Positions 1-22,417 of a stretch of 32,000 bases of DNA are shown in pieces. Source of the DNA: Cyclobacterium sp. 1_MG-2023 (GTDB lineage: Bacteria; Bacteroidota; Bacteroidia; Cytophagales; Cyclobacteriaceae); assembly GCF_030546805.1 (NCBI RefSeq), contig NZ_JAUOPC010000001.1, positions 114,081 to 146,080 of the forward strand, written 5' to 3'. Below the pieces are notes generated by a model that was not told the DNA's origin, did not search any database, and saw only the letters and a list, made by a program, of their open reading frames with translations. The position numbers and the translations under genes were made by a program. Each line of letters begins with the position of its first letter. Within the stretch, counting starts at the first letter, position 1.

Positions 1-729
1 AGTAATAATTTCAATTTGTTCATTATACTCGGTGTTGCAGGTCTCATTTATCCAATTACCGTTCAATCTTCCACAGCATGGAAAGAAATTCCTATTTCCC
101 TGATTGTCGCCTTATTATTGTTGGTCCTGGCCAACGATTTTTTTATAAATCAAAACCCTGAACTTTCAAACATTGACGGCCTGATTTTATTGACCGGATT
201 TGTTTGTTTTATTTATTATGTTTTTACCCAATTGAAACAAGAAAAATCTGAAGTGATTGCCTATGAAGAAAAATCAAATTATAAAATTGGGGCATTAATT
301 ATAGTTGGCATGGCTGGGCTTATCATTGGAGGGAAATTAGTGGTCGACAACAGTATAAATATGGCGACTGAATTAGGCGTTAGTCAAAAAATAATAGGTT
401 TAACCATAGTTGCTGCCGGAACCTCCCTTCCGGAATTGGTTACATCAATGGTTGCAGCCATAAGAAAGAATAGCGATATCGCCATTGGAAACGTAATTGG
501 TTCAAATATCTTTAATGTTCTGTTAATACTTTCCATCAGTTCGTTTGTAAATCCAATTGAATACAACCCGAATTTTAATCAGGATTTATTAATATTAATA
601 GGAGGTACTGTTTTTCTACTTTTGGCAATGTTTACCGGAAAAAGAAAAAAACTTGATCGGTGGGAGGCTTTAATCTTATTAAGTTTCTATTTGATTTACA
701 CGACCTTTTTGGTATCAAAAGAAATATAA
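1..729 (+). CDS. Ca2+/Na+ antiporter (CaCA/YrbG family), C-terminal part; the 5' end lies outside the window
   Basis: The frame is open from base 1, with no stop before the TTG at 16. The protein is multi-pass and hydrophobic and carries the CaCA alpha-repeat signature GTSLPELVTSMVAAIRKNSDIAIGNVIGSNIFNVLLIL. Confidence 0.85.
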   Translation, partial: SNNFNLFIILGVAGLIYPITVQSSTAWKEIPISLIVALLLLVLANDFFINQNPELSNIDGLILLTGFVCFIYYVFTQLKQEKSEVIAYEEKSNYKIGALIIVGMAGLIIGGKLVVDNSINMATELGVSQKIIGLTIVAAGTSLPELVTSMVAAIRKNSDIAIGNVIGSNIFNVLLILSISSFVNPIEYNPNFNQDLLILIGGTVFLLLAMFTGKRKKLDRWEALILLSFYLIYTTFLVSKEI

Positions 730-737
730 AAAACCAA

Positions 738-824
738 TAACTAAAAATCCTATGACCAGATACTGGTCGTTGAGCTGGTCGAAGGGTACTTTCTATACTG
801 AAAAACAGATGGATTGAAAAATCT
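738..824 (+). repeat. Junction repeat, P-type copy 1 (87 nt)
   Basis: It starts 9 nt after the CaCA stop. The left motif is TAACTAAAAATCCTATGAC, followed by a GACCAG-ata-CTGGTC hairpin at 754-768, a REP-like GAGCTGGTCGAAGGG core, and the right end GATGGATTGAAAAATCT. It is homologous to 1997-2071 and 6083-6150. Confidence 0.85.
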
Positions 825-891
825 ACCGGGATAAACCGGATTCTGTAGTTAAAGTAGAATTGACCTATGAGGTTAGTGTGGACAAAAATAG

Positions 892-950
892 AAATTCAAT
901 AAAACCTTAGTTTGACTAAAGAATTCCTTGTCTGAAATGTTTAATTTAAC
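892..950 (+). repeat. Junction repeat, R-core copy 1 (59 nt, diverged)
   Basis: The sequence is AAATTCAATAAAACCTTAGTTTGACTAAAGAATTCCTTGTCTGAAATGTTTAATTTAAC. It aligns without gaps to the cores at 5019, 7880, 9007 and 10591. Confidence 0.75.
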
Positions 951-1105
951 AAGTGTTTTAAACCATGGAGTTTGGTGTATATGCCTTTAAATGCTACTCC
1001 TAATATAAATAGGTAGGTAAACAGTTGTTCGACTCAATTAAAAAATAAGTAATTTTACACCCATTAGCCTGTAATTTTTCGTATAATAAGCAAAAGGGAA
1101 AAGAT

Positions 1106-1525
1106 ATGAATTCAACCAAAGATTCAATTAAAGATATTCCTGAGAAAATTTCAGATAGCCAGGTGGTTACCTATATACATTCAGGAGATTTAGGAACAAA
1201 ACAAGTTAAACTCTTCAAAACCTTGACTCATTCAAGCGATAAAGTCATTTCTGAATGGTTTGATGTTAGTGAAAAAACTTTCTATAGTTATAGAACCACT
1301 ACAGCAAAATTAAATATAAATTTCAAAGAAAAACTACTTTTATTAATATCCTTGTATAAACTAGGAGAAAGAGTTTTCGGCTCCAAAAAAGCATTTAATG
1401 ATTGGTTGGAAAAACCTAATTTTCATTTTAACAATAAACAACCTGTAGATTTTTTTAAAACCATTTCTGGTATTAGATATATTGAGGACAGATTAACCGG
1501 AATGCTATATGGAGATAATGCTTAA
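1106..1525 (+). CDS. Xre/MbcA/ParS-type antitoxin (DUF2384 toxin-binding domain) of a RES-Xre type II TA pair
   Basis: The C-terminal region AFNDWLEKPNFHFNNKQPVDFFKTISGIRYIEDRLTGMLYG matches the DUF2384 pattern. There is an HTH-like middle part. The gene ends 2 nt before the RES gene start. Confidence 0.85.
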   Translation: MNSTKDSIKDIPEKISDSQVVTYIHSGDLGTKQVKLFKTLTHSSDKVISEWFDVSEKTFYSYRTTTAKLNINFKEKLLLLISLYKLGERVFGSKKAFNDWLEKPNFHFNNKQPVDFFKTISGIRYIEDRLTGMLYGDNA

Positions 1526-1527
1526 TT

Positions 1528-1983
1528 ATGGAAGTATACAGAATTTCACACAAAGATTACTCAAAAGTATTATCAAGTGCTGGTTCATCAAACAGGTGGA
1601 ATTATGAGGGTGAATATGTTATTTATACAGGTTCTTCCAGGTCATTATCAACATTGGAGTTAATTGTTCATAGAAATTCCATTAAAAAGCTTCCTGATTA
1701 TGAAATGATGATCTTGTCAATAGCTGATGAAGATAATTTAATGGAGCAAATTTTAATCAAAAAATTACCGGCTAATTGGCGTTCATTTACATCCTATTTT
1801 AAATTACAAAAAATAGGTTCAGCCTGGTATAAAAAACAAAGCTCCTTAGTACTGAAAGTACCTTCTGCGGTAATACCAAAAGAATACAACTATATTATTA
1901 ACACAAAACATCCTACCTTCAATACGAATGTCTTATTAGTTAGAAACGAAGAATATTTTTTTGATGAAAGATTGTTTGAATAA
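1528..1983 (+). CDS. RES-domain toxin (MbcT/ParT-like NAD+-targeting family)
   Basis: The R, E and S signature positions are present in context: SSNRWNYEG (R), LSTLELIVHR (E) and LKVPSAVIPKEYNYIINTKHPTF (S). The gene is tightly coupled to the upstream antitoxin. Confidence 0.9.
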   Translation: MEVYRISHKDYSKVLSSAGSSNRWNYEGEYVIYTGSSRSLSTLELIVHRNSIKKLPDYEMMILSIADEDNLMEQILIKKLPANWRSFTSYFKLQKIGSAWYKKQSSLVLKVPSAVIPKEYNYIINTKHPTFNTNVLLVRNEEYFFDERLFE

Positions 1984-1996
1984 AAACTGTATTTCT

Positions 1997-2071
1997 TAAC
2001 TAAATATCCTATGATTGTCGCTTACCCAAACCGGTCCCTGAGGCTGTCGAAGGGTATCGATTGGAAAATCT
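1997..2071 (+). repeat. Junction repeat, P-type copy 2 (75 nt)
   Basis: The sequence is TAACTAAATATCCTATGAT...GGTCCCTGAGGCTGTCGAAGGGTATCGATTGGAAAATCT. It shares its left motif and right end with copy 1. Its right end abuts the truncated serine-hydrolase reading frame. Confidence 0.85.
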
Positions 2072-2870
2072 GGGGATTGCACATGACAATGGTTTAATAG
2101 GTGACTTGGACCAACCCATTCAATATTTTTTCCCCAAATACATCGATATCCTGCACACCGCTACCTGGCCGGTAAGCCTGAAAGATGCACTTACAATGTC
2201 TGCAGGATTGGACTGGAATAAATGGGAACTTCCTATATCAGACCCGGAAAATGAAGTAATAAAAATGCTTTTCAGTCAAGACATGTATGATTATGTATTG
2301 AAACGAAATATTGTCACCGGAACTCAACCGGGAGATAAGTTCGAGTACAACAGTGGCCTCTCGGTACTGCTTGGTGGTGTTATACTAGATGCTACCGGAA
2401 TGCCAGCTGATACATATGCCGAAAAAACATTGTTCAATCAATTGGGAATCCAACATTACAATTGGTTTTCCCTTACAGACGAAGTTCATACAGGTGGTGG
2501 ACTCTGGTTACAGCCCAGAGATTTTCTGAAAATGGGCCAATTGGTACTTGGTAGGGGAAAATGGAATAAATAACAGATAATTTCTGAATCTTGGATAGAA
2601 GAATCTACTGCCTTTCATCTACCACACTTGGAAAACAGTGGTTACGGTTATCAATGGTGGCGAGGTGAATTGAATGTAGATGAAATGAAATTCCCTATAA
2701 TTTATGTAGCCGGCTACGGTGGACAATTTTTATTTATAGTTCCTGATTTGGACCTTGTAACTTTGTTCTTGCATCATAATCCAAAAGATTTGGAATTAAG
2801 CCATACCATGGCATGGAAAGAAATGGAGAAATTTATTGTTCCTTCTTTTATAAGAAGATTAAACCATTAA
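2061..2870 (+). pseudogene. Beta-lactamase-related serine hydrolase, 5'-truncated and interrupted by an in-frame TAA
   Basis: The ORF pieces 2061-2573 and 2628-2870 share a frame (offset 567 nt). One TAA at 2571-2573 splits them (GRGKWNK*QIISESWIEEST). LGIAHDNGLI, FEYNSGLSVLLGGVI and GYGYQWW resemble the C-terminal two thirds of class-C beta-lactamase/PBP-like hydrolases. The N-terminal SxxK part is missing, and the frame begins inside repeat P2. Confidence 0.75.
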
Positions 2871-2936
2871 CCTTATAATGCCAAGTGGCTAGTATCAACT
2901 TCTTTCGCTAAATTTATAAAATACCAAAAAAGGGTT

Positions 2937-3209
2937 ATGACGTCACAAACTTCTTGCAAGCATATCACTGCTATCTCAGAATTTAAAACAGCCAATGAGC
3001 ATGTTTGCGAAGAATGTGTAAAATTGGGTGATGGTTGGGTACATTTGCGCACATGTCAGGAATGTGGTGTTACGCTTTGTTGTGACAATTCTAAAAACAA
3101 GCATGCAACAGCTCATTATCGTTCCACTAACCACCCGGTTATTAGTTCAGGAGAACTTAATGAAAGGTGGCTTTGGTGTTATGCCGATAAAGCTTTTGTA
3201 ACCTATTAA
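2937..3209 (+). CDS. UBP-type zinc-finger protein
   Basis: This is a 90-aa Cys/His-rich protein. The pattern CKH...CEEC...HLRTCQECGVTLCCDNSKNKHATAHYRSTNHP...WCY is typical of bacterial zf-UBP proteins. Confidence 0.8.
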   Translation: MTSQTSCKHITAISEFKTANEHVCEECVKLGDGWVHLRTCQECGVTLCCDNSKNKHATAHYRSTNHPVISSGELNERWLWCYADKAFVTY

Positions 3210-3221
3210 ACCAAACCATTT

Positions 3222-4868
3222 ATGATAGATTCTAAATATCCGGAGTTAACCGAAATACAAGTTGAAAAACTTAAAACCTATGGTGAGGTTGAATTTTACA
3301 AAGAGCCTACGGTGGTGTTGGATTTTGGTGATCAGCATTACGATTTTTTTGTAGTACTCACCGGTGGAATAAGAATTATAGATCCTTATAAAAGAGAGGA
3401 TAGCATTGCCATCCACAGAAGACATCAGTTTTCTGGGTCTAGTAGTATTTTGTCTCATAGAACGGTTGGTGTTTGTGGCGAAACATTAGAAAACACACAG
3501 CTTATAAGAATAAGTCCAGAAAAATTAAAAAGTGCCATTGCTAAATTCAGTGATATTAGTGATGTGCTTTTGAACGCTTTTTTACAACGTGAAGATGCAC
3601 TGAAGAATAACGTACAAGGCATAAAACTTATTGGTTCTGAACACTCTAATGAAACTTATGCCATTCGTGATTTCATGGATAAAAATGATATCTGGTACAA
3701 TTTTATAGATTCTGATAAGGAAGAAGGATTGGTACAAATGTTAGCCACTTTCAATCTTAAGGAATCTGATTTACCTGTTTTAATCAATAGTCAGAATGAT
3801 ATTTCTATTCGTCCGTCTATAGATGAAATTGGAGAATGTACCGGTGTTCGTTTACAGCTAGATGATGAAATTTACGATGTACTGGTAGTTGGAGCGGGCC
3901 CGGCAGGATTGGCAGCTAGTGTGTATGCAGCTTCAGAAGGACTAAAAGTGTTGACTATTGATAGCAACTCCCCGGGTGGACAAGCTGGTAAGAGTTCTAA
4001 AATTGAAAATTACCTGGGCTTTCCTACAGGAATTTCCGGTAGGGATTTAGCGAATAATGGCTATATACAAGCACAAAAGTTTGGCTGTACCATTTCTGTA
4101 CCACATAGGGTAGAGGGCATAGAGCGAAAAGACAATTATTATCAAATCAGTTCTAGCAACACTTCTATTTTAAAAGCTAAAACAGTAATTGCGGCTACAG
4201 GTGCAGCCTATAGAAGGTTACCCTTAGAAGGTATTGAAAAATTTGAAGGTTCCGGTATATACTACAGCGCCACCTCTATGCATGCAAATATGTGCAGAAA
4301 TAGTGAAATTGGTATTGTGGGTGGTGGTAACTCAGCAGGTCAAGCAGCATTATTCTTGGCAAATTATGCGCATAAAGTTTATGTGATAATTAGAAATGAG
4401 GACATAGGTGCCAAAATGAGCGATTATCTGGTACAGCGTATTATCGCTTGTGAAAATATTGAAGTATTGACCGGTAGTAACGTGATAACAGTTGAGGGAA
4501 GCACCTATTTAGAAAAGGTTGAAATCAAGAAAAATGAGACCTTAGTTGAAAATGATATTGGTTATCTTTTCACATTTGTAGGAGCAAAGCCTTGCACAGA
4601 ATGGTTAGATACTATTATTGATACAGATGCCAAAGGTTTTGTACATACGGGACTTGCCATTTGTGACAATGCTTTAAATAGCGAACCTGAGTTTGGTCAG
4701 AGAAAGCCGTATACCTTTGAAACTAGTTTACCGGGATTATTTGCAGTTGGCGATGTACGCTCAGGTTCTGTAAAACGTGTAGCTTCTGCCGTAGGTGAAG
4801 GTTCTATTGTTGTAAGTGATATTCATAAATTTCTGGCCCAAGACAAATTTGCTACTACCGCAAATTAA
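3222..4868 (+). CDS. cNMP-binding-domain / thioredoxin-reductase-like FAD-dependent oxidoreductase
   Basis: The N-terminus has a cyclic-nucleotide-binding-like region. It is followed by DVLVVGAGPAGLAASVYA (FAD GxGxxG), IGIVGGGNSAGQAALFL (NAD(P)H site) and GLFAVGDVRSGSVKRVASAVGEGS (TrxR-fold C-terminus). Confidence 0.85.
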   Translation: MIDSKYPELTEIQVEKLKTYGEVEFYKEPTVVLDFGDQHYDFFVVLTGGIRIIDPYKREDSIAIHRRHQFSGSSSILSHRTVGVCGETLENTQLIRISPEKLKSAIAKFSDISDVLLNAFLQREDALKNNVQGIKLIGSEHSNETYAIRDFMDKNDIWYNFIDSDKEEGLVQMLATFNLKESDLPVLINSQNDISIRPSIDEIGECTGVRLQLDDEIYDVLVVGAGPAGLAASVYAASEGLKVLTIDSNSPGGQAGKSSKIENYLGFPTGISGRDLANNGYIQAQKFGCTISVPHRVEGIERKDNYYQISSSNTSILKAKTVIAATGAAYRRLPLEGIEKFEGSGIYYSATSMHANMCRNSEIGIVGGGNSAGQAALFLANYAHKVYVIIRNEDIGAKMSDYLVQRIIACENIEVLTGSNVITVEGSTYLEKVEIKKNETLVENDIGYLFTFVGAKPCTEWLDTIIDTDAKGFVHTGLAICDNALNSEPEFGQRKPYTFETSLPGLFAVGDVRSGSVKRVASAVGEGSIVVSDIHKFLAQDKFATTAN

Positions 4869-4893
4869 ACCATCTATGCAGTATAGAAGGGAT

Positions 4894-5077
4894 GTCTCAA
4901 ACTGATCAGTTTTTGCTCTATGGGCAATTTAAGTTAAATTTTATGCTGTTTAAATCTCGTATTTATTGTCGATCCAACGAAGCACAGCCTTTTAGCCATT
5001 TCCAGTCAATTTTCAACAGTTTCCATTAAAACTTTAGTGAGAGAGCAGGATTCCTTGGCTGAAATGCTTAATTTAAG
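4894..5077 (+). repeat. Junction repeat, long form A (~184 nt) ending in the R-core at 5019-5077
   Basis: It starts 26 nt after the preceding stop and is colinear with 8882-9065. The first 36 nt, GTCTCAAACTGATCAGTTTTTGCTCTATGGGCAATT, differ at 1 position. It contains the 14-bp palindrome AAACTGATCAGTTT at 4899-4912. Confidence 0.9.
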
Positions 5078-5138
5078 ATGGGCTTTGAAATGGAAAAGAA
5101 GGGGTAATATTCAAAATGTTAAAGCGAAGTACCATACA

Positions 5139-5198
5139 ACATTAGGAGTCTAACGATTAGAATACGCTTGAGTAGTTCTTATATTGTTTTCTTCAAAC
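5139..5198 (+). repeat. S-block repeat copy 1 (60 nt), upstream of the ABM gene
   Basis: The sequence is ACATTAGG...GCTTGAGTAGTTCTTATATTGTTTTCTTCAAAC. The last 33 nt differ at 2 positions from 8083-8115. Confidence 0.85.
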
Positions 5199-5234
5199 CT
5201 TAGATTCCTTAATGTTAGCCTTAAATTGCAAGCT

Positions 5235-5570
5235 ATGAACAGAAAGAAAAAAATCATCAGGACTTGGAAGGGATGGACTACATTAGATAATGCTTCAATT
5301 TATGAAAATATGCTTATCAATGAAGTGTTTCCTGAAGTAAAAAGGAAGGGTGTGGCAGGATTGGAGAAAGTGAGTATTTCGACAAGTGAAAAAAATGATG
5401 AGGTAGAATTTTTTCTTATACTTCAGTTTGAATCTTTGGAATCTGTGAAAATGTTTGCGGGTGAAAAATATGAATTGGCATATATCCCGGATAATGCTAA
5501 ACGTGTTTTGTCACGATATGATGCAACTGCTCAACACTTTACTATGAAAGAAGAATTAATACTTAAATAA
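5235..5570 (+). CDS. Antibiotic-biosynthesis-monooxygenase-like (ABM/Dabb fold) small protein
   Basis: I take the ATG at 5235 (MNRKKKIIRTWKGWTT...) as the start rather than the TTG at 5184. The pattern WKGWTT...YE..L..EVFP......EVEFF.I..FESLESVKMFAGE.YE.AYIP..A..VLSRYD resembles this small-protein family. Confidence 0.65.
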   Translation: MNRKKKIIRTWKGWTTLDNASIYENMLINEVFPEVKRKGVAGLEKVSISTSEKNDEVEFFLILQFESLESVKMFAGEKYELAYIPDNAKRVLSRYDATAQHFTMKEELILK

Positions 5571-5589
5571 ATTTGACCTACAAAACCTA

Positions 5590-6039
5590 TTGCGTTTAAC
5601 TAAACCGTTTGGCCAAATAAAAATACAAAACTTGGAGCTAATAACTTTAAAAACATTTGATAATTCAATTGAGGCTCACTTGATGAAATCTAAACTCAAA
5701 AGTGAGAATATTGTGTGCTTTTTATTTGATGAAAATATAGTAGGGCTTAATCCTGTATATAACATAGCAGTTGGTGGGATAAAGTTAAAGGTTATTAAAT
5801 CAGACATTGATAAGGCGAGTTTAATTTTAAAGGAGACTGAAAAAGCTAGGTTAACCAATGAAATTGGCGAAGTTATCATCTGTCCGGTTTGCCATTCAGA
5901 AGAAGTTTATGGTGGATTCAAATCAATGAAGGGAATAAAGGGGATAATATCAGCTATTACCTCATTCCTATTGATGGTTTATCCGATTTATTATAAGTCC
6001 ATTTACAAATGCAAAAAATGCGGAAAAGAATTTAAATAA
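5590..6039 (+). CDS. DUF2007-like (putative signal-transducing) protein with a C-terminal zinc ribbon and hydrophobic segment
   Basis: LITLKTFDNSIEAHLMKSKLKSENIVCFLFDEN is DUF2007-like. The ribbon is CPVCHSEE...CKKCGKEF. The start is uncertain, because only TTG candidates (5590, 5632) precede the domain. Confidence 0.6.
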   Translation: MRLTKPFGQIKIQNLELITLKTFDNSIEAHLMKSKLKSENIVCFLFDENIVGLNPVYNIAVGGIKLKVIKSDIDKASLILKETEKARLTNEIGEVIICPVCHSEEVYGGFKSMKGIKGIISAITSFLLMVYPIYYKSIYKCKKCGKEFK

Positions 6040-6082
6040 TGCCTCTGCAAAAAATACCAAGCATCCTGGCGAATGGAACAGT

Positions 6083-6150
6083 CCCAAACCGGATCCTGAA
6101 CCTGCCGAAGAGTCCTTTTTATAATGAAAAACGGATGGATTGAAAAATCT
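6083..6150 (+). repeat. Junction repeat, P-type copy 3 (68 nt clearly homologous)
   Basis: The sequence is CCCAAACCGGATCCTGAACCTGCCGAAGAGTCC...TTTTATAATGAAAAACGGATGGATTGAAAAATCT. It has the same right end as copies 1 and 2. It shares CCCAAACCGG with copy 2 and TATA(C/A)TGAAAAAC(A/G)GATGGATTGAAAAATCT with copy 1. Confidence 0.8.
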
Positions 6151-6531
6151 TGAGCCAAAGAGCCGGAATTCCTTGTTTATGGAGAGGTATTGGCTTAGTA
6201 TAATGAAATATTTTTATCCCTTTTGCCGAAAAGTATTCAAATTGAACGTATTAAATCCGTTTTTAGCTCATTTTATAAGGTTTTTTAAATCTTTTTACGG
6301 TTTGATGTTTTCGCAATTCTTAATTTAAAAAGTAAGTTAAGAAGGATGGATGCGTATAATCAAAAGCTATTACTCTTCTGGAAAGGCATTGCTAATTTTC
6401 GGTATCATCTCCGGTGTTTTAGTTTAACAATGCAATATGTAGTTCCAAAATTGGTTAATATAAAACTAAATATTATTTTAACATTTTAAGACGATTCAAT
6501 ACCTTAATCTAGTAAAACAAAAAGATCTGCT

Positions 6532-6963
6532 ATGAAATATTTATTTTCTATGAGTTTAACATTTTTTTCATTATGCGCATTTGCACAGGATTCAAAGACT
6601 TCATTGATGAAGATTGTTTTGGCTGATTCAGTAATTAATAAATATATGGCTGGTATTGGGAAAGAAGATATTAATGAATATAAATTATTTCATGGATCTG
6701 GGTATTATATCTTTAATGATGGAAATGTTGAATTTCAAGAACATAATGGTAACAATAGTAATGCTATACAAAAAGGAATTATCAAAAAGATAAAAATTAA
6801 TAAGAATAAGGCTATAGTGAAATTTTATACAGCTTCATGTAACAACACACGCGTCAGCTTGAAGAAAGAAGCAAAAAATTGGGAAATTAAATCGAGGCTG
6901 ATTTACAGAAGCTGGAAGCATCCAAAAAAACAACCTAAACTTGTATACTATAGTTTGAATTAA
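6532..6963 (+). CDS. Secreted hypothetical protein
   Basis: There is a clear signal peptide, MKYLFSMSLTFFSLCAFAQ. I recognise no family. Confidence 0.6.
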   Translation: MKYLFSMSLTFFSLCAFAQDSKTSLMKIVLADSVINKYMAGIGKEDINEYKLFHGSGYYIFNDGNVEFQEHNGNNSNAIQKGIIKKIKINKNKAIVKFYTASCNNTRVSLKKEAKNWEIKSRLIYRSWKHPKKQPKLVYYSLN

Positions 6964-7011
6964 AAATTTAGGATCGTCGTTGAATTTCTGATTTGAAATG
7001 TTCATTTTAAC
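6955..7011 (+). repeat. Junction repeat, degenerate R-core copy overlapping the stop codon of the preceding gene
   Basis: The sequence AATTAAAAATTTAGG...TGAATTTCTGATTTGAAATGTTCATTTTAAC aligns to ATTAAAACTTTAG...GGATTCCTTGGCTGAAATGCTTAATTTAAG. Confidence 0.55.
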
Positions 7012-7102
7012 AAATACATTAAGCAAAAGTAGAAGGGATATAATCCAAATAAGCAAAACTTCTATGCCAATTATGTATATACATATGTTTTAACAATTGA
7101 AA

Positions 7103-7648
7103 ATGAGAAAATTAAAACTTCAAATTCAACTTTCAATTGATGGATTCATCGCTGGTCCTAATGGAGAAATGGACTGGATGATTTGGAATTGGGATGATAA
7201 GCTAAAGGATTTCGTAACCCAACTAACGGAATCAACTGATACTATAGTTTTGGGTCGCAAACTGGCAGAAGGATTTATTCCATACTGGAGATCAAATAAG
7301 GAGTTGGAAGGTGCTGAAAAAATTAATAATTCTAAGAAAATAGTTTTTACCAAAACACTTGAAAGCTCGAACTGGGAAAATACCATTTTGGAAAAGGGAG
7401 ATTTGACAGATAAGATACAAAAATTAAAATCCTTAACTGGGAATGACATGATAGCCTATGGTGGGGGAGCATTTGTTTCATCACTAATCAAAGAAAATTT
7501 GATTGATGAATATTACTTTTTTATTAACCCTACTATTTTAGGTTACGGAATGCCAATATTTGAGAAAACTGACTATAATAAGGAGTTGAAGTTGGAAGAA
7601 GCAAAAGCTTATGAGTGTGGAATAACCGTTTTAAAGTATACGAATTGA
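7103..7648 (+). CDS. Dihydrofolate-reductase-family protein (RibD C-terminal domain type)
   Basis: MRKLKLQIQLSIDGFIAGPNGEMDWM...IVLGRKLAEGF...MIAYGGGAFVSSLIKENLIDEYYFFINPTILGYGMPIF fits the YwjB/RibD_C-like family. I prefer the ATG at 7103 over the TTG at 7097. Confidence 0.8.
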   Translation: MRKLKLQIQLSIDGFIAGPNGEMDWMIWNWDDKLKDFVTQLTESTDTIVLGRKLAEGFIPYWRSNKELEGAEKINNSKKIVFTKTLESSNWENTILEKGDLTDKIQKLKSLTGNDMIAYGGGAFVSSLIKENLIDEYYFFINPTILGYGMPIFEKTDYNKELKLEEAKAYECGITVLKYTN

Positions 7649-7680
7649 ACACAGTATTAATTTACACTCCCAGTTCAACC

Positions 7681-7938
7681 CCTATGACTCGATTAAGGCC
7701 TCGGTTCATTGTAGTCCTGTTCGATCAGTATTGGACTCGGCCTCTGCTAGCTTTTTATGTTGGATATTGGATAGTTTTGTTGGGGGAATTAGGAAGCAAT
7801 TGAATTTTTATATAGTGCCAATAAATATGACCAATTAGAGCTTTTTGTTCCCTTATCCATTTCTAGTCCATTTCCCACAGTTTCCATTAAAACATTAGGA
7901 TATCCAATGGATTCCTTGCCTGAAATCCTTAATTTACT
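7681..7938 (+). repeat. Junction repeat, long form C, ending in the R-core at 7880-7938
   Basis: The left motif CCTATGAC is followed by GATTAAGGCCTCGGTTCATTGTAGTCCTGTTCGATCAGTA, which is homologous to 10520-10560. Next come a GCAATTGAATTTTTAT segment related to 4926-4945 and then CCATTTC.AGTCCATTTCCCACAGTTTCCATTAAA. Confidence 0.8.
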
Positions 7939-7944
7939 AGAATA

Positions 7945-7985
7945 AAAAACCGAAATAGCGGTAAGGTTGTTCGGTTTCGGTTTTT
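7945..7985. terminator. Bidirectional terminator-like hairpin
   Basis: AAAAACCGAAA (7945-7955) and TTTCGGTTTTT (7975-7985) form a perfect 11-bp stem flanked by A and T tracts. It sits immediately after R-core copy C. Confidence 0.55.
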
Positions 7986-8055
7986 AATTAAATTTACGGG
8001 TGGGATCTGGAAGAGAAAGTCGTGCTATTACATGGCAAAAAAAGGCATAATTCCC

Positions 8056-8115
8056 ACATTAGGCATTTAGTAATTTGTACAAGCTTTAGTAGTTCTTATA
8101 TTGTATTCTTCAAAC
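8056..8115 (+). repeat. S-block repeat copy 2 (60 nt), upstream of the antitoxin/ParE pair
   Basis: The sequence is ACATTAGG...GCTTTAGTAGTTCTTATATTGTATTCTTCAAAC. See copy 1 at 5139-5198. Confidence 0.85.
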
Positions 8116-8202
8116 AGAAGATATCTCAGTTTCACTTCTCATAAGCTAAAAAATTAAAAAGTACACTATTATTAATAATTTGGAAACATAAAATACAATC
8201 TT

Positions 8203-8418
8203 ATGTCAAAGGTAAAAGACAAACTTATAGATCAAATTACATCCTTAAACGATGAGGAGCTATTGGAATCAATATCAAATATGGTGAGTCAATTAAGTGC
8301 TGATGGGACGATCGAATTGTCGGAAGAAGTGCAGCAGGAGCTAGAAAAAAGAAGCGCAGAAATTAAAAAAGGAAATTTTATGACAAACGAAGATTTTGTA
8401 AAGAGATTTAACAAATGA
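8203..8418 (+). CDS. Small antitoxin partner of the ParE/RelE-family toxin
   Basis: This is a 71-aa acidic helical protein. Its stop overlaps the toxin start in ATGA at 8415-8418, which is the classic type II TA arrangement. Confidence 0.7.
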   Translation: MSKVKDKLIDQITSLNDEELLESISNMVSQLSADGTIELSEEVQQELEKRSAEIKKGNFMTNEDFVKRFNK

Positions 8419-8711
8419 AATTGAAAACAATTTGGTCATTAGAAGCAATTTATGAATTTGAAGCTATTTGTGAATACTGGGACAAAAGAAACAATTCAAA
8501 TTTATATAGCCGTAAATTGTTCAAATTAACTCAAGAAGTTATTAAAATAATAGAGAAACACCCCAAATTGGGAGTAAATTCAAATTCAGCAAATATAAAA
8601 ATGAGACTTGTTGAAAATAATTACTATTTAATTTACAAAATTTGCGATGAACACATTGAAATTTTAAAATTTTGGGACACTAGGCAAAATCCGAAAAAGA
8701 GAAAATTTTAA
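8415..8711 (+). CDS. Type II toxin, RelE/ParE family
   Basis: The protein is 98 aa. The N-terminus IWSLEAIYEFEAICEYW and the C-terminus HIEILKFWDTRQNPKKRKF match the pattern of Bacteroidota ParE-like toxins (FD.RQNPKK tail). Confidence 0.8.
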   Translation: MKLKTIWSLEAIYEFEAICEYWDKRNNSNLYSRKLFKLTQEVIKIIEKHPKLGVNSNSANIKMRLVENNYYLIYKICDEHIEILKFWDTRQNPKKRKF

Positions 8712-8881
8712 AAAAACGAGAGGTAATTGAGTGATTGGCTACTAACTAAAAGCCTACAGAGTTTCCCTTACGATTTATCCCGAATATAGGGGACAAGGTA
8801 CCCTTAAAAAAATTAGCCTAAGCAGAACATTTTCCGTGTCTGCCCTTTATTTAGAAGGCTTTTTCTTTCAAGCATGTGTTA

Positions 8882-9065
8882 GTCTCAAACTGATCAGTTT
8901 TTGCTTTATGGGCAATTAAAGGTACAATTTGACACTGTATAAATCTCGCATTAATTGTCTACCCAATGCAGCAAATCCTTTAACCATTTCCAGACCATTT
9001 TCAGCAGTTTCCATTAAATTCTTAGTCTATTAACTGGATACTTTGTCTGGAATGCTTAATTTGGC
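8882..9065 (+). repeat. Junction repeat, long form B (~184 nt) ending in the R-core at 9007-9065
   Basis: It is colinear with 4894-5077. In this copy only, the core end forms a perfect 10-bp hairpin: TGCTTAATTT (9053-9062), ggcaggg, AAATTAAGCA (9070-9079). Confidence 0.9.
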
Positions 9066-9169
9066 AGGGAAATTAAGCAGAAGTGGCTGAGTGCTTAGTT
9101 GATAAATACATAACTCCTTAGATAAACTTACTTATATACATTTATTGTAGGTAATTGAAAAAAATGTAA

Positions 9170-9937
9170 ATGGCATATTCGTTTGATATTGTTGATCAAA
9201 AAGTAAATGAAACTGAATTCTTTTTGAAAAAGATGGTTGAAGCTGAGAGCAATTGGTTCGAATTCTCTTGCTATTTAACAGCATTCCTTTCTGCATCAAG
9301 AACCATTACACTCGCACTTCAACGATTTAAATTTATAGATGGATTTAATGACTGGTATGAACCACACCAGTCAGTTCTTAAGGGAGATCCATTAGCTAAA
9401 TTTTTTCTTGAAATTCGAAATGATAATGTGCATGGCGGACCGAACCCAGTTGTTGGAGTATCATTTTACCATGGTAAATCTAAATATCGTTTTAAGGAAC
9501 AGGACAAACTGGAGCATGGTGATATTGTTTCAAGTTGTCGAATACACTTTATAAAGCTGCTTGAAATTGTTCATGATTGTTATGTGGTGTTGGGAGTTCA
9601 TATTGACCCACAACAATATTACACAAAGGAAAATTTTTCAACATTAGGATGCAATATTAATGATGCTGAAGTAGAGATTTGGGGTTGGGTAATGACATCT
9701 TTTATTGATGATGGGATGGATGAAGATGACCGATGGCACGAATTAAGAGGAAGAGTTGGAGAGTGTCATATTAATCATCTCTTTAAAGGGTATTTAAATA
9801 AAGTCACGCCTCAACCTAATATTCCGGATAGAATACAGGACTTTGACTTTACTGATGAAGATAGAGGATGGACATACATTCCACCCGGGTTTAATACAAT
9901 AGACGATTATCTAAAAACAATTGACAAAATAAAGTAA
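9170..9937 (+). CDS. Hypothetical protein (255 aa) with a possible HEPN-like Rx4H motif
   Basis: The ORF is long and uninterrupted and I recognise no family. FFLEIRNDNVHGG contains R-N-x3-H, the spacing typical of HEPN active sites. This rests on the motif only. Confidence 0.5.
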   Translation: MAYSFDIVDQKVNETEFFLKKMVEAESNWFEFSCYLTAFLSASRTITLALQRFKFIDGFNDWYEPHQSVLKGDPLAKFFLEIRNDNVHGGPNPVVGVSFYHGKSKYRFKEQDKLEHGDIVSSCRIHFIKLLEIVHDCYVVLGVHIDPQQYYTKENFSTLGCNINDAEVEIWGWVMTSFIDDGMDEDDRWHELRGRVGECHINHLFKGYLNKVTPQPNIPDRIQDFDFTDEDRGWTYIPPGFNTIDDYLKTIDKIK

Positions 9938-10008
9938 CTACCTACACAATTGTGTAAAAATGCATTAAAACGTATTTTACACGAAACGTTGCCACACTTA
10001 TTCGAACC

Positions 10009-10476
10009 ATGAAACATTTCGCTTTTGGATTAACATTTATAATTATGACCTCTTGTGGACAGGCTGATATTCAAAGTGGACCACAAGCAGATAACTTGAA
10101 AGTAGAAGAACCTAATATCAAATCAGAAACTTTTGATGATGAAATTATAACCTTACTTTATGAAAAATTAGACTCTGGATTTGATATTGACTTTAAGCAA
10201 AACCATCTTGAGAGCATTTTAAAAAATCTAGATATATTGAGTTTAAAAGAGGGAGAGGAATTTGAAAAAGAAATGCTCTTCGAAGACTATAAATGTGACT
10301 GCCTTGACAAAATAAAAATCTATTATGATAAAGCGGATGACAGATTTATACTATGGGTCTATGAAGAATTTTATGAAACTGATTTAGATTGGTGTCCTGA
10401 AACCTCATATTCCTATTCTTTTCAAATTGTGAACCATAAAATTACGGACTTGAAATTGGACTTTATGGCCGGATAA
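10009..10476 (+). CDS. Hypothetical lipoprotein
   Basis: There is a signal peptide with a lipobox-like IIMTSC|GQ. The mature part is acidic. Confidence 0.6.
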   Translation: MKHFAFGLTFIIMTSCGQADIQSGPQADNLKVEEPNIKSETFDDEIITLLYEKLDSGFDIDFKQNHLESILKNLDILSLKEGEEFEKEMLFEDYKCDCLDKIKIYYDKADDRFILWVYEEFYETDLDWCPETSYSYSFQIVNHKITDLKLDFMAG

Positions 10477-10519
10477 AAAAAATAAAATACGTTTGGCAAC
10501 AATTAAGCTATAATTATGC

Positions 10520-10649
10520 GATTTAGCCTTCGGTTCATTATAGTCCCAATCGATCGGTATAGCTTAGCCAATTCCTGACCATATTCAACTGTTTCCATTA
10601 AATTCTTAGTCTATCTATTGGATACCTAGTCATAAACGCTTAATTTAAA
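10520..10649 (+). repeat. Junction repeat, short form D, ending in the R-core at 10591-10649
   Basis: GATTTAGCCTTCGGTTCATTATAGTCCCAATCGATCGGTAT is homologous to 7691-7730. The core matches the 9007 core at 47/59 positions by hand count, and the first 24 nt are identical. Confidence 0.85.
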
Positions 10650-10740
10650 AAGAAATCAATTCAGTCGGTACATAGCTGATTTATGTAACTACTTGGATAA
10701 ACTTAATTATTTACAGTTGTTAGCATACATTAAAAAAACT

Positions 10741-11118
10741 ATGAGTAAAATAGAATTAAACTTTTGCAAAATTGTTCAAGATTCTCAAGATTATGGGAGT
10801 AATAATGAGCATATGATTTCAAGAGTATACTTCACAGTTGATGAAAAAGAATATGAATGTAATGTTCGACAACCTTATGGAGAAAGTTTTTCATTTGAAA
10901 AGGATCCAATTGAAGTTGAAGCACCCGAAGAATTAAAAAAAATAATCAACTATGGACAATTTAGAGATGAAGTTGAAAATTATTTTCGAAAAGCCGTTAG
11001 TGCTAATGCACACGGAATCCGAATTGATGGAGGAATGAATATTAGAATGCGAAATAATACTATAGAGAATCCACACAAAACGAGTATTGACAAAGCAGGA
11101 ATAAGTGGTGCTTGGTAA
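10741..11118 (+). CDS. Hypothetical protein (orphan, 125 aa from the ATG at 10741)
   Basis: The frame is open and I recognise no family. I prefer the ATG at 10741 over the TTG at 10693. Confidence 0.5.
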   Translation: MSKIELNFCKIVQDSQDYGSNNEHMISRVYFTVDEKEYECNVRQPYGESFSFEKDPIEVEAPEELKKIINYGQFRDEVENYFRKAVSANAHGIRIDGGMNIRMRNNTIENPHKTSIDKAGISGAW

Positions 11119-11206
11119 AAAAAATGGTATGCTAATAACTAAGCATTCTGACATTTGGAACAGCCTAGTCTGAGTGCAATGAAAAGTTTAGGGAATATAT
11201 CAATAT

Positions 11207-11228
11207 CCCTTCGACAAGCTCAGGGACC
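11207..11228 (-). repeat. REP-like element (inverted copy of the P-type core)
   Basis: The reverse complement of CCCTTCGACAAGCTCAGGGACC is GGTCCCTGAGCTTGTCGAAGGG. This matches 2033-2054 (GGTCCCTGAGGCTGTCGAAGGG) at 20/22 positions. Confidence 0.8.
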
Positions 11229-11367
11229 AGTTCTAGTCTAGGCAATGGGTGCTGTTGGCTGTGTTTAAATTAGACTTGCTAGGGTAAATGATTTCCTTTT
11301 AATGTATGGCCTACAGCTAAGTGTGAGTAAGGTGAAAATACAATCCTTCTTTAAAATTGGTAATAAA

Positions 11368-11706
11368 ATGGAAACCAGTAAAGTATATCTCTGTAGAGTG
11401 GAAAGGTCGAAAATAAACGGTAATTATACTGTTTGGTTACCGGAACAACCGGACGATGATTTTGTTGATCTGTTGGTGGATAAAAATGATTTATTACAAG
11501 GGGAACTGTGGGGAATTCTTTTAAAAACCGGTGCCAGGGATAGCAACTTAGATGTTTCAAAGGTCTATTTTGCCCCTGAAGGAGATGTCTTTGTCTCCTA
11601 TACCAGCGATTATGAATTGAGTAAAAACATGGAGAAAATCCTAAATGAACTGATTTTAAATCAGGAGTACTTTATTAACATGGTCCACCTAAGCGGATTA
11701 GATTAG
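11368..11706 (+). CDS. Hypothetical protein (orphan, 112 aa from the ATG at 11368)
   Basis: The frame is open and I recognise no family. The start is uncertain (ATG at 11302 or 11368). Confidence 0.5.
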   Translation: METSKVYLCRVERSKINGNYTVWLPEQPDDDFVDLLVDKNDLLQGELWGILLKTGARDSNLDVSKVYFAPEGDVFVSYTSDYELSKNMEKILNELILNQEYFINMVHLSGLD

Positions 11707-11783
11707 TAATTGGCAGTATAACAGGTTATTTTTAATGACATTTTTATACCTTTAGCATTATCCGCTATAAAAGGTGTTCTATC

Positions 11784-13073
11784 ATGGTTTTACGTGCGCT
11801 TACCCTTCTTGTTTTTTCCTTTTCCATAGTCAATTTTGCCCAGGCACAAGTAAAATACAATAGGGTGGTGTTTAAACCCAACCCCTATGTAGAATACCAT
11901 CCCAATGGCAATATTTACAAAAAAGGTTTTGTGAATGCCGACAATCAATTCGTTGATACGCTAGCCATTTTCTTTCCCTCTGAAAAATTATCGATGACTG
12001 CCGTTTACGACAATGGGGTGCCGAATGGGTTATGCATTCATTACAATGAGGATGGCTCAATTAGTAGGGAAGGGCTATATGCACAAGGCAAAAAAGAAGG
12101 GCTTTGGATCTATAATAACTATGCTGAATCTAAAGATGGTCTTCCTTATCGCTTCACTGTGAATTATAAAAACGGCCAACTTCATGGAGAGACAATCCTT
12201 TATGAAGGAACACATAAAATCCGCTCCGTACATGCATTTTTAGGTAAACCCGCACCGAATACAATATGGGAAATGTATTACGATAATAGCGATAATTTAT
12301 GGGCTGTTGGCTTCATTTCCGATGACAATCAATTTACCTTGAGGGGCTTATATACGGAAGAGGGGAAATTTGTGGACAAGGTTGGGGTCAGTAAGGAAAA
12401 AACCGAAACTTTTTTAGAAGCCATGAGAACGTTTTATAAGTCCATCCCTAAACAAGAAATAAAGTCGACGTCCAAGGTCACCTATGAGAATAAGACAGTT
12501 ACACATAAATCCGTCCCCTTTAGCACTTATCACGCCAATGGGAAAGTTCATGAGAAAGGCTATCGCAATGCCAAAGAGCAGCTTGTTGGAAAGTTACAAA
12601 CCTTCTATTCGTCAGGCACTTTAAAATCCGAAATGTACTATTTCAATGGAGCGCTTCAAGGTGACTGTACGCATTATAATGAGGATGGTACCACTAAAAT
12701 GCAAGGCAAATATGCCAAAGGTAAAAAAGATGGTTTATGGATTTATCCTGATTACATCAAGAATAATGGGGCTAGGTTTAGTTATGAGGTACATTACAAA
12801 AACGACCTGGTTCATGGAGAAACCTTATTCATCCGTGGAGATGAAAAATGGTTGTTGATGACAGCTTCCGAAGGAGTATTGCTTGGGAAATGGGAAACCT
12901 ATTACCCAAATGGCAACCCATCAAGCTCTGGTTTGGTGAGTGCTGCCGGAGATGTTCTTACCCATAAAGTATTTGACAAAGAGGGTAAAAGACTGGTTAC
13001 GATGTTTTCACCGCCTACTCCTGAAAACTTAAGCAAGTCTATCAAGGATGTTTTTGCCACCATTCCTAAATAG
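11784..13073 (+). CDS. MORN-variant / YwqK-like repeat protein, secreted, internally duplicated
   Basis: There is a signal peptide ending FAQAQ. Repeated motifs of the type HYNEDGxxxxxGxYAxGKKxGLWIY and VxYKNxxxHGET occur. The two halves are offset by 633 nt. Confidence 0.6.
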   Translation: MVLRALTLLVFSFSIVNFAQAQVKYNRVVFKPNPYVEYHPNGNIYKKGFVNADNQFVDTLAIFFPSEKLSMTAVYDNGVPNGLCIHYNEDGSISREGLYAQGKKEGLWIYNNYAESKDGLPYRFTVNYKNGQLHGETILYEGTHKIRSVHAFLGKPAPNTIWEMYYDNSDNLWAVGFISDDNQFTLRGLYTEEGKFVDKVGVSKEKTETFLEAMRTFYKSIPKQEIKSTSKVTYENKTVTHKSVPFSTYHANGKVHEKGYRNAKEQLVGKLQTFYSSGTLKSEMYYFNGALQGDCTHYNEDGTTKMQGKYAKGKKDGLWIYPDYIKNNGARFSYEVHYKNDLVHGETLFIRGDEKWLLMTASEGVLLGKWETYYPNGNPSSSGLVSAAGDVLTHKVFDKEGKRLVTMFSPPTPENLSKSIKDVFATIPK

Positions 13074-13658
13074 TAAAACACATAAAAGGTAAGCATTAGT
13101 CGACTGAAGGAAGGTAAAAATACCCGAAGTGACAGGAAAGTACAGGAATCGGAAAGAAACCTGCGGGAATGCAATAGTAACACGAAGGAATGAAAAAGGA
13201 GGTTCTAGTTTCCGAGCCCTGTTTTTTTAAATATGGCATATGCCTTTTCCTAAACCTTTTAAATTGATCCGAATGATTCTTTAAAAAGTGCTTATGCTTT
13301 TGTTGCTAGAAAGAATAAACCTATCCACAGCGGATATTTTTAGGATATTTTTTAAAATTTAGGTGATGGATTAAATTTGACCCGAAAAGGGACAAATGTT
13401 TATAGTCAATGCTTTCAGGTTTGGTATACGACCCTTACAAGGTCTAATATCAGAGAAACCCATTTCTTCCTATTAACCTATAATCCCTTTAGGATCAAAA
13501 TGTCGTTATATTATTTTTATTACATAAGTACGTGATAGATAGAGGGATAATAAAATATAATGGTTATTTTAGATCAGCCAATTCCCGAAAGTGTCCCTAA
13601 ATCCTTCTTGTTCTAGGTCCCTTTCACCAACTCGATCTACAAAACAAATGACCCTCTC

Positions 13659-15053: not shown

Positions 15054-15064
15054 GGGTGTCTTAA

Positions 15065-15112
15065 GATTTTGTCAGCATTGTTGCAGAAAAAAAGCAACAA
15101 TGCCGCCAAAAT
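15065..15112 (+). repeat. 48-nt hairpin element, copy 1 (directly after the VWA stop; possible terminator)
   Basis: GATTTTGTCAGCATTGTTGC-agaaaaaaa-GCAACAATGCCGCCAAAATC is a long imperfect palindrome. Related copies lie at 21957-22000 and 22370-22417. Confidence 0.85.
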
Positions 15113-15590
15113 CAAGTTGTATATGTTATTTCTCCTAGGGGTTTGCACCCCTAGCTACAAAAATATCACTCCTCCGGAGTTTTGGGTAAGGGTAAAATCG
15201 ACATGCTCAGAATTTAAATCAATAGAGAATCAGATAGAATTCTAATACATCGGTAATTTACAATGTTAGGGAGTTAATTTTTATCAGTGCTATTTTCTTT
15301 ATTCCGGCCTTATGGAAATTAGTAAAATGATTGCTCAATGGCGTTAAGAACAAAAAATCTGTCTGACGCCTTTTCGGCGGAGTTTTTTTTTGTTTAGCCA
15401 GTGAGTATTCATTTTGCGTTAAGATTTACATACAGCCTTGATCTTTTTGGTTCGTTTTTGTGTCATAGCCTGCCCTGAGTAGCGAAGCGGATCAGTGGAC
15501 AAAAATGAACAGGAAGAGATAAGGGTAACCAATGGCTTTAATATTAAAATCATATGAAAAGAGTATAATATCACTATAACTCGTGTTGTA

Positions 15591-21790: not shown

Positions 21791-21872
21791 TGATGTGGTG
21801 ATGTGGTGATCTGTGATGGGGTGATCTGGTGATTTGGTGATGTAGTGATCTGTGATTTGGTGATTTAGGATG
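21788..21872 (+). repeat. Degenerate tandem octamer array (NNGGTGAT, about 10 units)
   Basis: Reading from the stop codon, the units are GTGGTGAT GTGGTGAT CTGTGAT GGGGTGAT CTGGTGAT TTGGTGAT GTAGTGAT CTGTGAT TTGGTGAT TTAGGATG. Confidence 0.9.
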
Positions 21873-21956: not shown

Positions 21957-22000
21957 TTTGGCGGTATTATTGCTATTTCTGCAACAATGCTGACAAAAGC
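21957..22000 (-). repeat. 48-nt hairpin element, copy 2 (inverted relative to copy 1)
   Basis: TTTGGCGGTATTATTGCTATTTCTGCAACAATGCTGACAAAAGC is a near match to the reverse complement of 15065-15112. Confidence 0.8.
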
Positions 22001-22369
22001 TACATAAGGAAAATATTTCATTTATGTTTCCATCATTTAATTATTGGGTCTGATGGGGTTAAAAATAAGTGTATCTCCTCATTGGAGCTAACTCATTTTT
22101 TTAGCGTTCACCATCCATTTCCGAAAACCATAAGCTTTGAAGGCCAAAAACACCTAATATATCACACTGTCCTAGAAAGTTTTCTTTATCGGTACAATTC
22201 AATTTATCCAAGATTGTTAATTGTTAGGTTCGCTTAGAAACTGAATTACTTGCTTACTTTTTCTCATCAATAGAAATTATCATCCCTTACGAAAACGAGT
22301 AACCCCATAGGGGTGGCACTTTTGTAGGCAAAGGTGACAACCCTTGGATGATGCATGAGGAAAGTATCT

Positions 22370-22417
22370 GATTTTGGCGGTATTGTTGCTTATTTTCGCA
22401 ACAATGCTGACAAAATC
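22370..22417 (-). repeat. 48-nt hairpin element, copy 3 (inverted relative to copy 1)
   Basis: The sequence is GATTTTGGCGGTATTGTTGCTTATTTTCGCAACAATGCTGACAAAATC. It lies next to a CCCTTACGAAAAC...TTTTGTAG block (22284-27) related to 15155-15192. Confidence 0.85.

Follow-up and report, generated by a model that had tools for sequence, protein, structure and literature searches.

A strain-variable array of co-oriented accessory-gene cassettes with its own junction repeat in marine Bacteroidota

The DNA considered here (the window) is a stretch of 32,000 nucleotides (nt) from Cyclobacterium sp. 1_MG-2023 (contig NZ_JAUOPC010000001.1, positions 114,081 to 146,080 of the forward strand). It contains part of a chromosomal hotspot, a strain-variable array of co-oriented accessory-gene cassettes around the CaCA (Na+/Ca2+ exchanger) gene. 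The variable region of the window is from 730 to about 13,370 and its modules are split by a mosaic junction repeat. The hotspot is bounded on the left by a giant adhesin gene or a dioxygenase cluster and on the right by a VWA gene, and at least 11 related loci have the same flanks with different cassette content and order. (The labels L001-L035 stand for related loci from species genomes and metagenome-assembled genomes (MAGs) and for metagenome loci, L019-L035 having been added by protein identity.) The cargo is toxin-antitoxin (TA) pairs, defence-type genes, orphans, gene fragments and, occasionally, a 5-kb operon.

Genes and cassettes of the array

An open reading frame (ORF) scan finds every credible ORF from 1 to 15,053 on the + strand, as an earlier note on this DNA had stated, and a Pfam domain search on all sizeable ORFs of the window recovers nearly all the gene labels given there. 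The exceptions are an 'ABM' protein at 5184-5570, for which there is no Pfam support at E<=0.01, and a '255-aa orphan', which is now assigned to PF26900 (Phage_lambda_Ea47). The spot G+C counts of that note (14, 15, 24 and 23 per 60-nt line) are exact and the array is AT-rich, with 33.6% G+C versus 39.1% in the rest of the window. All the genes that follow are on the + strand.

The 3′ part of the CaCA gene (16-729; Pfam Na_Ca_ex) is at the left end, and this gene is conserved in all relatives. It is counted inside the variable region because some relatives carry cassettes upstream of it; in L003/L014, L007 and L032 the C element, the best-conserved piece of the junction, is present upstream of CaCA and the array there extends left of the window. 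Two proteins of the window match proteins of Cyclobacterium sp. 1_MG-2023 at 100% identity. However, at about 80% the nearest named homologues of the CaCA gene are from Flavobacteriaceae (Formosa, Mesonia and Bizionia), and a related MAG has the label Yeosuana; the Cyclobacterium name of the record may not reflect its true family.

The first cassette, 1106-1983, encodes an Xre-family antitoxin (Xre_MbcA_ParS_C, 1106-1525) and a RES toxin (1528-1983), and is missing in L024, L028, L003, L032 and L035. It is followed by a three-gene cassette, 2071-4868, in which Pfam identifies a 5′-truncated beta-lactamase-fold hydrolase (2061-2573 plus 2628-2870), zf-UBP (2937-3209) and a pyridine-nucleotide-disulphide oxidoreductase resembling TrxR (cNMP_binding and Pyr_redox, 3222-4868). 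This cassette is 97-98% identical to its counterparts in L024 and L005, where it occupies another position in the array. The full-length hydrolase there is of 535 aa, with a C element upstream of its gene, and the first ~808 nt are gone from the window copy, so the truncation read earlier from the window is borne out. The fragment is split by an in-frame TAA at 2571-2573; the stop is very recent, since L019, 98% identical, reads through with an unbroken call of 269 aa.

A cassette for a 111-aa protein and DUF2007 (5235-6039; DUF2007 at 5590-6039) is preceded in the window by the TrxR-like cassette and in L026 by the ParE cassette. The next gene, for a secreted 143-aa orphan (6532-6963, from the ORF scan), adjoins CaCA in nearly all relatives. 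The RibD_C (DHFR-family) cassette at 7103-7648 (Pfam entry at 7097-7648) has at least eight different downstream neighbours across relatives. The antitoxin/ParE toxin cassette (8203-8711; Pfam, the antitoxin match being weak) occurs in seven contexts and keeps its own variant of the junction core in six of them; a search for ParE homologues gave three proteins only. An Ea47-family protein (PF26900, 9170-9937) and a lipoprotein (10009-10476) together form the cassette 9170-10476, in place of which L002 has other genes; the surroundings of an Ea47-family homologue, P0002, are not an array. The 125-aa orphan cassette (10741-11118, from the ORF scan) is missing in L002 and L006, and an orphan at 11302-11706 has a weak Pfam match to Imm51.

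The array was earlier taken to end at about 11,750. The end-points of BLAST matches with L024 (13367) and L028 (13383) place the right boundary of the variable region, and the start of the common flank, at 13367-13383, so that the MORN-repeat gene (11784-13073; MORN_2), which is missing in L028 and L008, lies inside the variable region. Beyond it is the VWA gene (13659-15053; Pfam). PADLOC gives zero matches for ten cassette proteins, and Rfam at gathering thresholds gives nothing for the whole window. ARAGORN finds neither tRNA nor tmRNA in the window which, with no integrase there, is not what a tRNA-targeted integrative island would present.

Anatomy and confinement of the junction repeat

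Repeats at the cassette boundaries are far above chance (five matches of the core pattern versus 0.03 expected), and one mosaic repeat family, as proposed earlier, is a fair description of them. Each cassette has copies of a single private mosaic junction on its two sides. The C element consists of an arm of about 30 nt, TTTARCCATTTCCAGACCATTTTCARCA, and a 56-nt core, GTTTCCATTAAA-N3-TTAG-N10-TGGATWCYTTGYCTGRAATSCTTAATTT. Four full copies (4989-5074, 7850-7935, 8977-9062 and 10561-10646) and three degenerate ones (895-948, 6151-6185 and 6948-7012) are all on the + strand. Counting from the stop codon, the order in a full junction is a stop-proximal motif (..TTAAAC..CTATGAY..), a D repeat (7690-7731, 10519-10560) or B repeat (4894-4942, 8882-8930), segment x (7732-7805, with TTGAAT at its 3′ end), arm, core, and a leader after the core that is either E (5139-5205, 8056-8122) or F (9111-9146, 10686-10721). 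The E repeat, the copy of which at 8056-8122 is upstream of the antitoxin/ParE genes, is a putative common 5′ leader and candidate promoter segment. At some boundaries an alternative 3′ element, the A repeat, is present instead (757-824, 2025-2055 and 6083-6150, and inverted at 11207-11232).

The longest junction, the sixth, is of about 265 nt (7672-7935) and has every piece: stop-proximal motif 7672-7689, D 7690-7731, x 7732-7805, arm 7850-7879 and core 7880-7935. The shorter forms look like deletion derivatives of it. Junction 3, a long form of 181 nt (4894-5074; B 4894-4942, arm 4989-5018, core 5019-5074; E=1.6e-21 with a hidden Markov model (HMM) of the element), is 81% identical to junction 7 (8882-9062; B 8882-8930, arm 8977-9006, core 9007-9062). 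In the short form at junction 8 (10519-10646) D, 10519-10560, directly abuts the arm, 10561-10590, which is followed by the core, 10591-10646, and then by F at 10686-10721; the same joint of D and arm is in L005 and L019. The others are less complete. Junction 1 (730-948) has the stop-proximal motif at 738-755, A at 757-824 and a degenerate core at 895-948. Junction 2 (1984-2070), with the motif at 1997-2014 and A at 2025-2055, is fused to the end-point of the hydrolase deletion. Junction 4 (6083-6185) is A (6083-6150) followed by a 5′-truncated core (6151-6185), and in junction 5 (6948-7012) a degenerate core overlaps the stop codon of the 143-aa orphan. All these are on the + strand. Junction 9 (11119-11240) has the stop-proximal motif and the inverted A (11207-11232, − strand) without a C core, and its 3′ element also ends cassettes in L010.

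Junctions are 85-270 nt long. The number of nucleotides between the end of the core and the start codon is 28-270, probably enough room for each cassette to have its own promoter. Scans for sigma-70 promoters and for terminators give chance level, and on inspection the core has neither the Bacteroidetes −33/−7 consensus nor a sigma-54 match. Directly after the ParE-type core there is a hairpin with a T-run (AAAAACCGAAA...TTTCGGTTTTT) at 7945-7990. A post-core segment, AGAATAAAA...AAATAGCGG, common to the ParE-type core of the window and both L010 copies, marks a second subtype of the C element. Reading in reverse from the CAT of the core (GTTTCCATTAAA) there are ORFs at 7789-7887, 8916-9014 and 10503-10598, and likewise in L001-L004. 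A reverse-strand gene for a protein beginning METxENGLEMxK (often of 32 aa) was considered and rejected: stops or frameshifts interrupt several copies, the reading frame is not preserved from one copy to the next and L010 does not conserve it. The 32-aa reverse ORF is thus unlikely to be a gene.

In the DNA searched, the repeat is confined to arrays. The C-element HMM gives no credible copy in the window past 10,654, and the roughly 70 kb of DNA outside arrays (13.4-32 kb of the window plus flanks of L014, L024, L028, L032, L035, L008 and L010) has no credible copy of either C or A. Within each locus every copy found with the HMM shares the orientation of the genes. In 185,579 species genomes the exact core pattern is on five contigs of three Tara-derived MAGs only, all of them array contigs. 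A scan of metagenomes with the core pattern gave 13 loci, eight real and five chance single matches, and in viral contigs (searched with two patterns), plasmids and phages the junction has no match. The confinement holds at an unrelated place also: L010 comes from another genome and has other genes as flanks (ADH, M13 peptidase), and its C elements are before ParDE/HigBA and TIR cassettes.

Outside the array the window has other repeats. A palindromic element of the repetitive extragenic palindrome (REP) type, TTTTGTCAGCATTGTTGC-AGAAAAAAA-GCAACAATGCCGCCAAAATC, is intergenic at 15064-15114, 21976-22001 and 22369-22417, and is also at L010 481-527 and L008 ~970-1000; unlike the C element it is truly dispersed. 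At and just after the 3′ end of the ORF 20624-21790 there are short tandem repeats of GGTGATSTG type (21775-21860; periods of 39 and 8 nt). A segment of about 300 nt is present twice, about 890 nt apart (24035-24333 and 24933-25225; 73-76% identity), and each copy extends into the beginning of a small ORF; the two ORFs (24275-24625 and 25167-25565) are paralogous, and this is a tandem gene duplication.

Variation among related loci and its breakpoints

The order in the window is CaCA, Xre-RES, truncated hydrolase-zfUBP-TrxR-like, 111 aa-DUF2007, 143 aa, RibD_C, ParE pair, Ea47-like plus lipoprotein, 125 aa, Imm51-like, MORN and VWA. Even in L019, 98.3% identical over 7 kb, a HEPN/nucleotidyltransferase pair replaces what the window has after RibD_C. 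In L024, with flanks 91-95% identical, CaCA is followed by the 143-aa gene, RibD_C, the full-length hydrolase-zfUBP-TrxR-like cassette, a reverse 386-aa gene, a 114-aa gene, the ParE pair and an AbiJ-like gene, and then on to MORN and VWA. (Beside the reverse 386-aa gene, at L024 8380-8640, the translation reads like a remnant of an IS21-family, IstA-like transposase; it appears unrelated to the junction repeats.) The minimal array, in L028/29/30, has three cassettes: CaCA, 143 aa, RibD_C, 106 aa and then VWA only. In L032 the stretch from the giant adhesin gene to CaCA contains about 10 kb of extra co-oriented cassettes, among them a 4-kb operon with a C element on either side. L026 is a recombinant in which the ParE cassette is joined to the 111-aa plus DUF2007 cassette. 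L035, L007, L003/L014, L001/L006, L002 and L005 have other combinations each (Mrr, Fic, DUF418 and others); of these, L001/L006 cover the right flank (MORN/VWA) only, and L002 and L005, short array contigs from a single MAG, reach at most the MORN side. L034 (1-20954; CaCA 84% identical) has long runs of small co-oriented genes on both sides of CaCA, among them beta-lactamase-fold fragments, DUF6090, PadR and DUF302, without a C element, and its junction may be of another kind or have diverged.

Between lineages, identity is 91-98% in the cassettes as against 79-87% in the flanks and flanking genes. This difference points to exchange between lineages.

Breakpoints between relatives are only inside junction repeats, yet they are at many positions there. 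In the A repeat, L003, L024 and L028 join window position 824 straight to 6086-6150 (breakpoint 824/6150). Comparison of junction 6 with its relatives gives breakpoints at 7698 (start of D), 7731 (end of D), 7787, 7803-7805 (end of x) and 7836-7868. Others are at the boundary of arm and core, at the core end, at the start of B (4892) and about 50 nt past the core (L003 versus L028). The crossover in L026 is within −14 to +13 of the core start of junction 7, and several other comparisons agree with this. Variants of the core go with the downstream cassette (the ParE-type core in six contexts) and variants of the arm with the upstream one (the 3′ end of the ParE cassette in five contexts). In two cores there are conversion-like patches within DNA that is otherwise 98% identical (L019_4280 versus the window, and L005_7403 versus L019_7022). 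L007 has a direct duplication of about 200 nt of the CaCA 3′ end beside an inserted block: its 4466-4666 corresponds to window 625-823, the last ~105 nt of CaCA plus the A repeat, as a second copy inside the array. Such a duplication is a signature of single-crossover insertion or of an element targeting the 3′ end of a gene.

How the cassettes may be exchanged

That the array is recombination-built, the core of the earlier note's interpretation, stands: close relatives differ in module content and order, with breakpoints inside the repeats, and in an HMM scan of the relatives C-element copies are in arrays only. Neither scattered copies nor an identical module order is seen. The alternative in that note of a decayed integron is unlikely.

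We tentatively favour, at a probability of roughly 45%, shuffling mainly by homologous recombination between junction copies, with the junction kept for its expression signals. Junction copies would be portable homology for recombination of RecA type and for gene conversion, the partners being other junction copies in the same genome and DNA acquired from related strains. Cassettes would be deleted, reordered or, through Campbell-type integration of looped-out circles, inserted, and the junction would be retained for signals that the cassettes need, such as those that terminate the unit before it and express the unit after it. It is the spread of breakpoints over the junction, together with the short conversion patches, that leads to the attribution mainly to homologous recombination; together with the L007 duplication they are what homologous recombination, gene conversion and Campbell-type insertion leave behind. 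Conserved segments serve RecA-dependent module exchange in the orphan toxin/immunity arrays after cdiA/rhs and in the maf islands of Neisseria, which the present array resembles in its mosaic repeats and short conserved segments between modules. Unlike in those, there is here no main toxin gene with a repeated conserved region and no cargo of toxin C-terminal domains, and the repeat is non-coding (at most there is the doubtful 32-aa reverse ORF).

Several observations weigh against homologous recombination as the main agent. Conservation of the 56-nt core is strong, its orientation is always that of the genes and it is seen in arrays only, even at L010 in another genome and locus, and homology alone leaves this unexplained. 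Core follows downstream cassette and arm follows upstream cassette, and the clustering of several crossovers in the ~25 nt around the arm/core boundary is what a site-specific enzyme would give (this boundary is the longest stretch of identity between copies, so a pile-up there is expected under either model). Tracts of identity between paralogous junction copies are of 25 nt or less, a marginal length for RecA. Homologous recombination also leaves unexplained where the junction comes from and how a new gene first acquires one, and this, with the strong conservation, keeps a site-specific capture reading alive.

On the site-specific reading a recombinase encoded elsewhere would use the C element, arm plus core, as its att site. 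Cassettes would be excised as circles and reinserted at a different C element, crossing over where arm and core meet, a counterpart of attC x attC recombination, or of that by the XerD-like enzyme of the Bacteroidales system discussed below, the enzyme being unlinked as in clusters of attC sites lacking an integron-integrase (CALINs). It is the best of the alternatives, if on the unlikely side, and we are slightly more doubtful that marine Bacteroidota have a so far undescribed cassette-capture system whose attachment site is the C element and whose recombinase is encoded away from the array. The conservation, co-orientation and confinement of the core across lineages and loci speak for a site-specific system, as do the tracking of arm and core with their respective neighbours and the independent comparisons that put crossovers at −14 to +13 of the core start. 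The many breakpoints elsewhere in the junction, and the conversion patches, speak against it.

A further feature cuts both ways. In the consensus, the arm and the right end of the core form an imperfect inverted repeat of 14-15 nt, which is weak and not maintained. In this stem, drawn by hand, 82% of cells are paired versus 17-47% in slid controls, and five pairs have double changes (a number reached by 9 of 500 shuffles). However, cognate arm/core duplexes, with energies of −3 to −10 kcal/mol, bind no better than non-cognate ones, and despite the high pairing and modest covariation a conserved arm-core hairpin is rejected on that account. Folded as single-stranded DNA on both strands, C elements and whole junctions give z of about 0 except for one copy, and RNAalifold on 17 copies finds weak structure only (−3.7 kcal/mol).

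The enzyme itself would be encoded away from the array. No recombinase domain is found by Pfam in any sizeable ORF of the window. The arrays of L014, L024, L028/29, L032 and L035 have no recombinase within some 8-14 kb, and there is none in the 6.7 kb beyond the L010 array; the tested ORFs of L001, L005 and L007, loci with nearly no flank, also have none by Pfam. About ten arrays are without an adjoining recombinase, unlike integrons and the Bacteroidales system.

The attC sites of integrons have RYYYAAC...GTTRRRY boxes ending an imperfect palindrome of 57-141 nt, which folds as single-stranded DNA with extrahelical bases. Sedentary chromosomal integrons and CALINs are alike to the array in their short co-oriented cassettes rich in TA pairs, defence genes, orphans and fragments, in having a locus-specific repeat at each boundary, in content and order that vary between close strains, and in G+C below that of the surroundings. 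The compact co-oriented cassettes, strain-variable content and order, and breakpoints at the repeat are thus all as in an integron. However, the junction with C lacks R''/R' boxes and a conserved bottom-strand hairpin, there is no IntI nearby, the boundary is about one third into the element rather than at its 3′ end, and breakpoints are not at a single position. Both strands of 1-15,000 were scanned for RYYYAAC/GTTRRRY boxes and have two pairs only, with dG of −3.5 to −5.3 kcal/mol. The stop-proximal ..YAAC motif with the TTGAAT of segment x was considered as an R''/R' pair and is rejected, since 7660-7809 folds worse than its shuffles (z = +2.6). The box scan, folds and Pfam agree with the earlier note that canonical attC and IntI are absent; its finding of no obvious box pair holds, whereas a weak inverted repeat, of which it had seen none that was long, does exist. 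The array is not a canonical integron.

In the same phylum, Bacteroidales have clusters for recombinase-associated acquired interbacterial defence, known as rAID-1 (Ross et al. 2019, bioRxiv 10.1101/471110; PMC12247911). Its intergenic motifs are conserved, repetitive and 'reminiscent of integrons', and it is recognised by a co-oriented 5′ XerD-like tyrosine recombinase with >44% identity to BF9343_RS08045 (bioRxiv 10.1101/471110; PMC12247911). It is the closest described system in the phylum: it too has short co-oriented low-G+C genes with repetitive intergenic motifs (motifs likened by description), and one cassette here has the weak Imm51 match. With 16 + strand ORFs at 25-41% G+C the array also has the two or more co-directional downstream genes of G+C <=41% that rAID-1 requires. 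In contrast, its defining adjacent XerD-like recombinase is absent, no tyrosine recombinase domain being present in the window or 5′ of the arrays in L014, L028, L032 and L035, and the cargo here is mainly TA, defence and miscellaneous genes whereas that of rAID-1 is immunity genes against type VI secretion. To our knowledge rAID-1, which is tied to gut Bacteroidales and to its adjacent recombinase, is the only integron-like platform described in Bacteroidetes. Small modules, often TA, whose recombinase is encoded elsewhere are also known as pdif modules (Acinetobacter plasmids) and other elements that exploit Xer. They resemble the present ones in being small accessory modules bounded by a short conserved site. 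However, pdif sites are 28-bp XerC/XerD sites with an 11-6-11 dyad and alternate in orientation, whereas the C element has no symmetry of that kind: inspection of the arm/core boundary finds no dyad, which also counts against a site-specific core site in general, and the copies are all direct.

The remaining explanations are less probable. The cassettes might be non-autonomous transposon-like units, bounded by the core on the left and the arm on the right. They would be mobilised by a transposase or HUH enzyme, itself encoded elsewhere, that targets the end of a resident unit and so builds head-to-tail arrays. The head-to-tail arrangement in constant orientation, the several TTYCCA-type motifs, direct and inverted, in arm and core, and the array at an unrelated locus in L010 would fit. 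However, there are neither terminal inverted repeats at the unit ends nor a target-site duplication, the breakpoints are scattered and the only sign of a transposase is the apparently unrelated IS21-like remnant in L024, and we regard this as improbable. More improbable still is an ordinary dispersed family, of REP type or of miniature inverted-repeat transposable elements, that is merely dense in a generic genomic island. The junction is indeed a mosaic of short repeat families and the window does have a dispersed hairpin repeat elsewhere, but such a family would be in both orientations at unrelated intergenic sites, and the C element has no credible copy in the non-array DNA searched, is on array contigs only among the 185,579 species genomes, and has all its copies in one orientation. 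Least credible of all is a decayed canonical integron array (CALIN) with eroded attC sites: the cassette content is typical of sedentary integrons, the stop-proximal motifs end ..YAAC (GTTCAAC, 7672-7678) and segment x ends TTGAAT, but the two box pairs and the fold of 7660-7809 are as poor as given above, the junction is well conserved across lineages, neither eroded nor attC-like, and integrons are almost unknown in Bacteroidetes (bioRxiv 10.1101/2022.02.28.482270).

A marine lineage therefore has a cassette array with its own junction element, and with turnover documented between near-identical strains, without a linked enzyme. If homologous recombination, tentatively preferred here, operates with no recombinase, a private intergenic repeat can with its help mimic integron dynamics. 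Should there be a dedicated recombinase, the array represents a new system of gene capture; were the site-specific reading true, it would be a third integron-like platform after IntI/attC integrons and rAID-1, with a site that is double-stranded or weakly structured and unrelated to attC. The array bears on the origin of cassette arrays and of defence or TA islands, and the junction HMM is a direct handle for finding such arrays in metagenomes.

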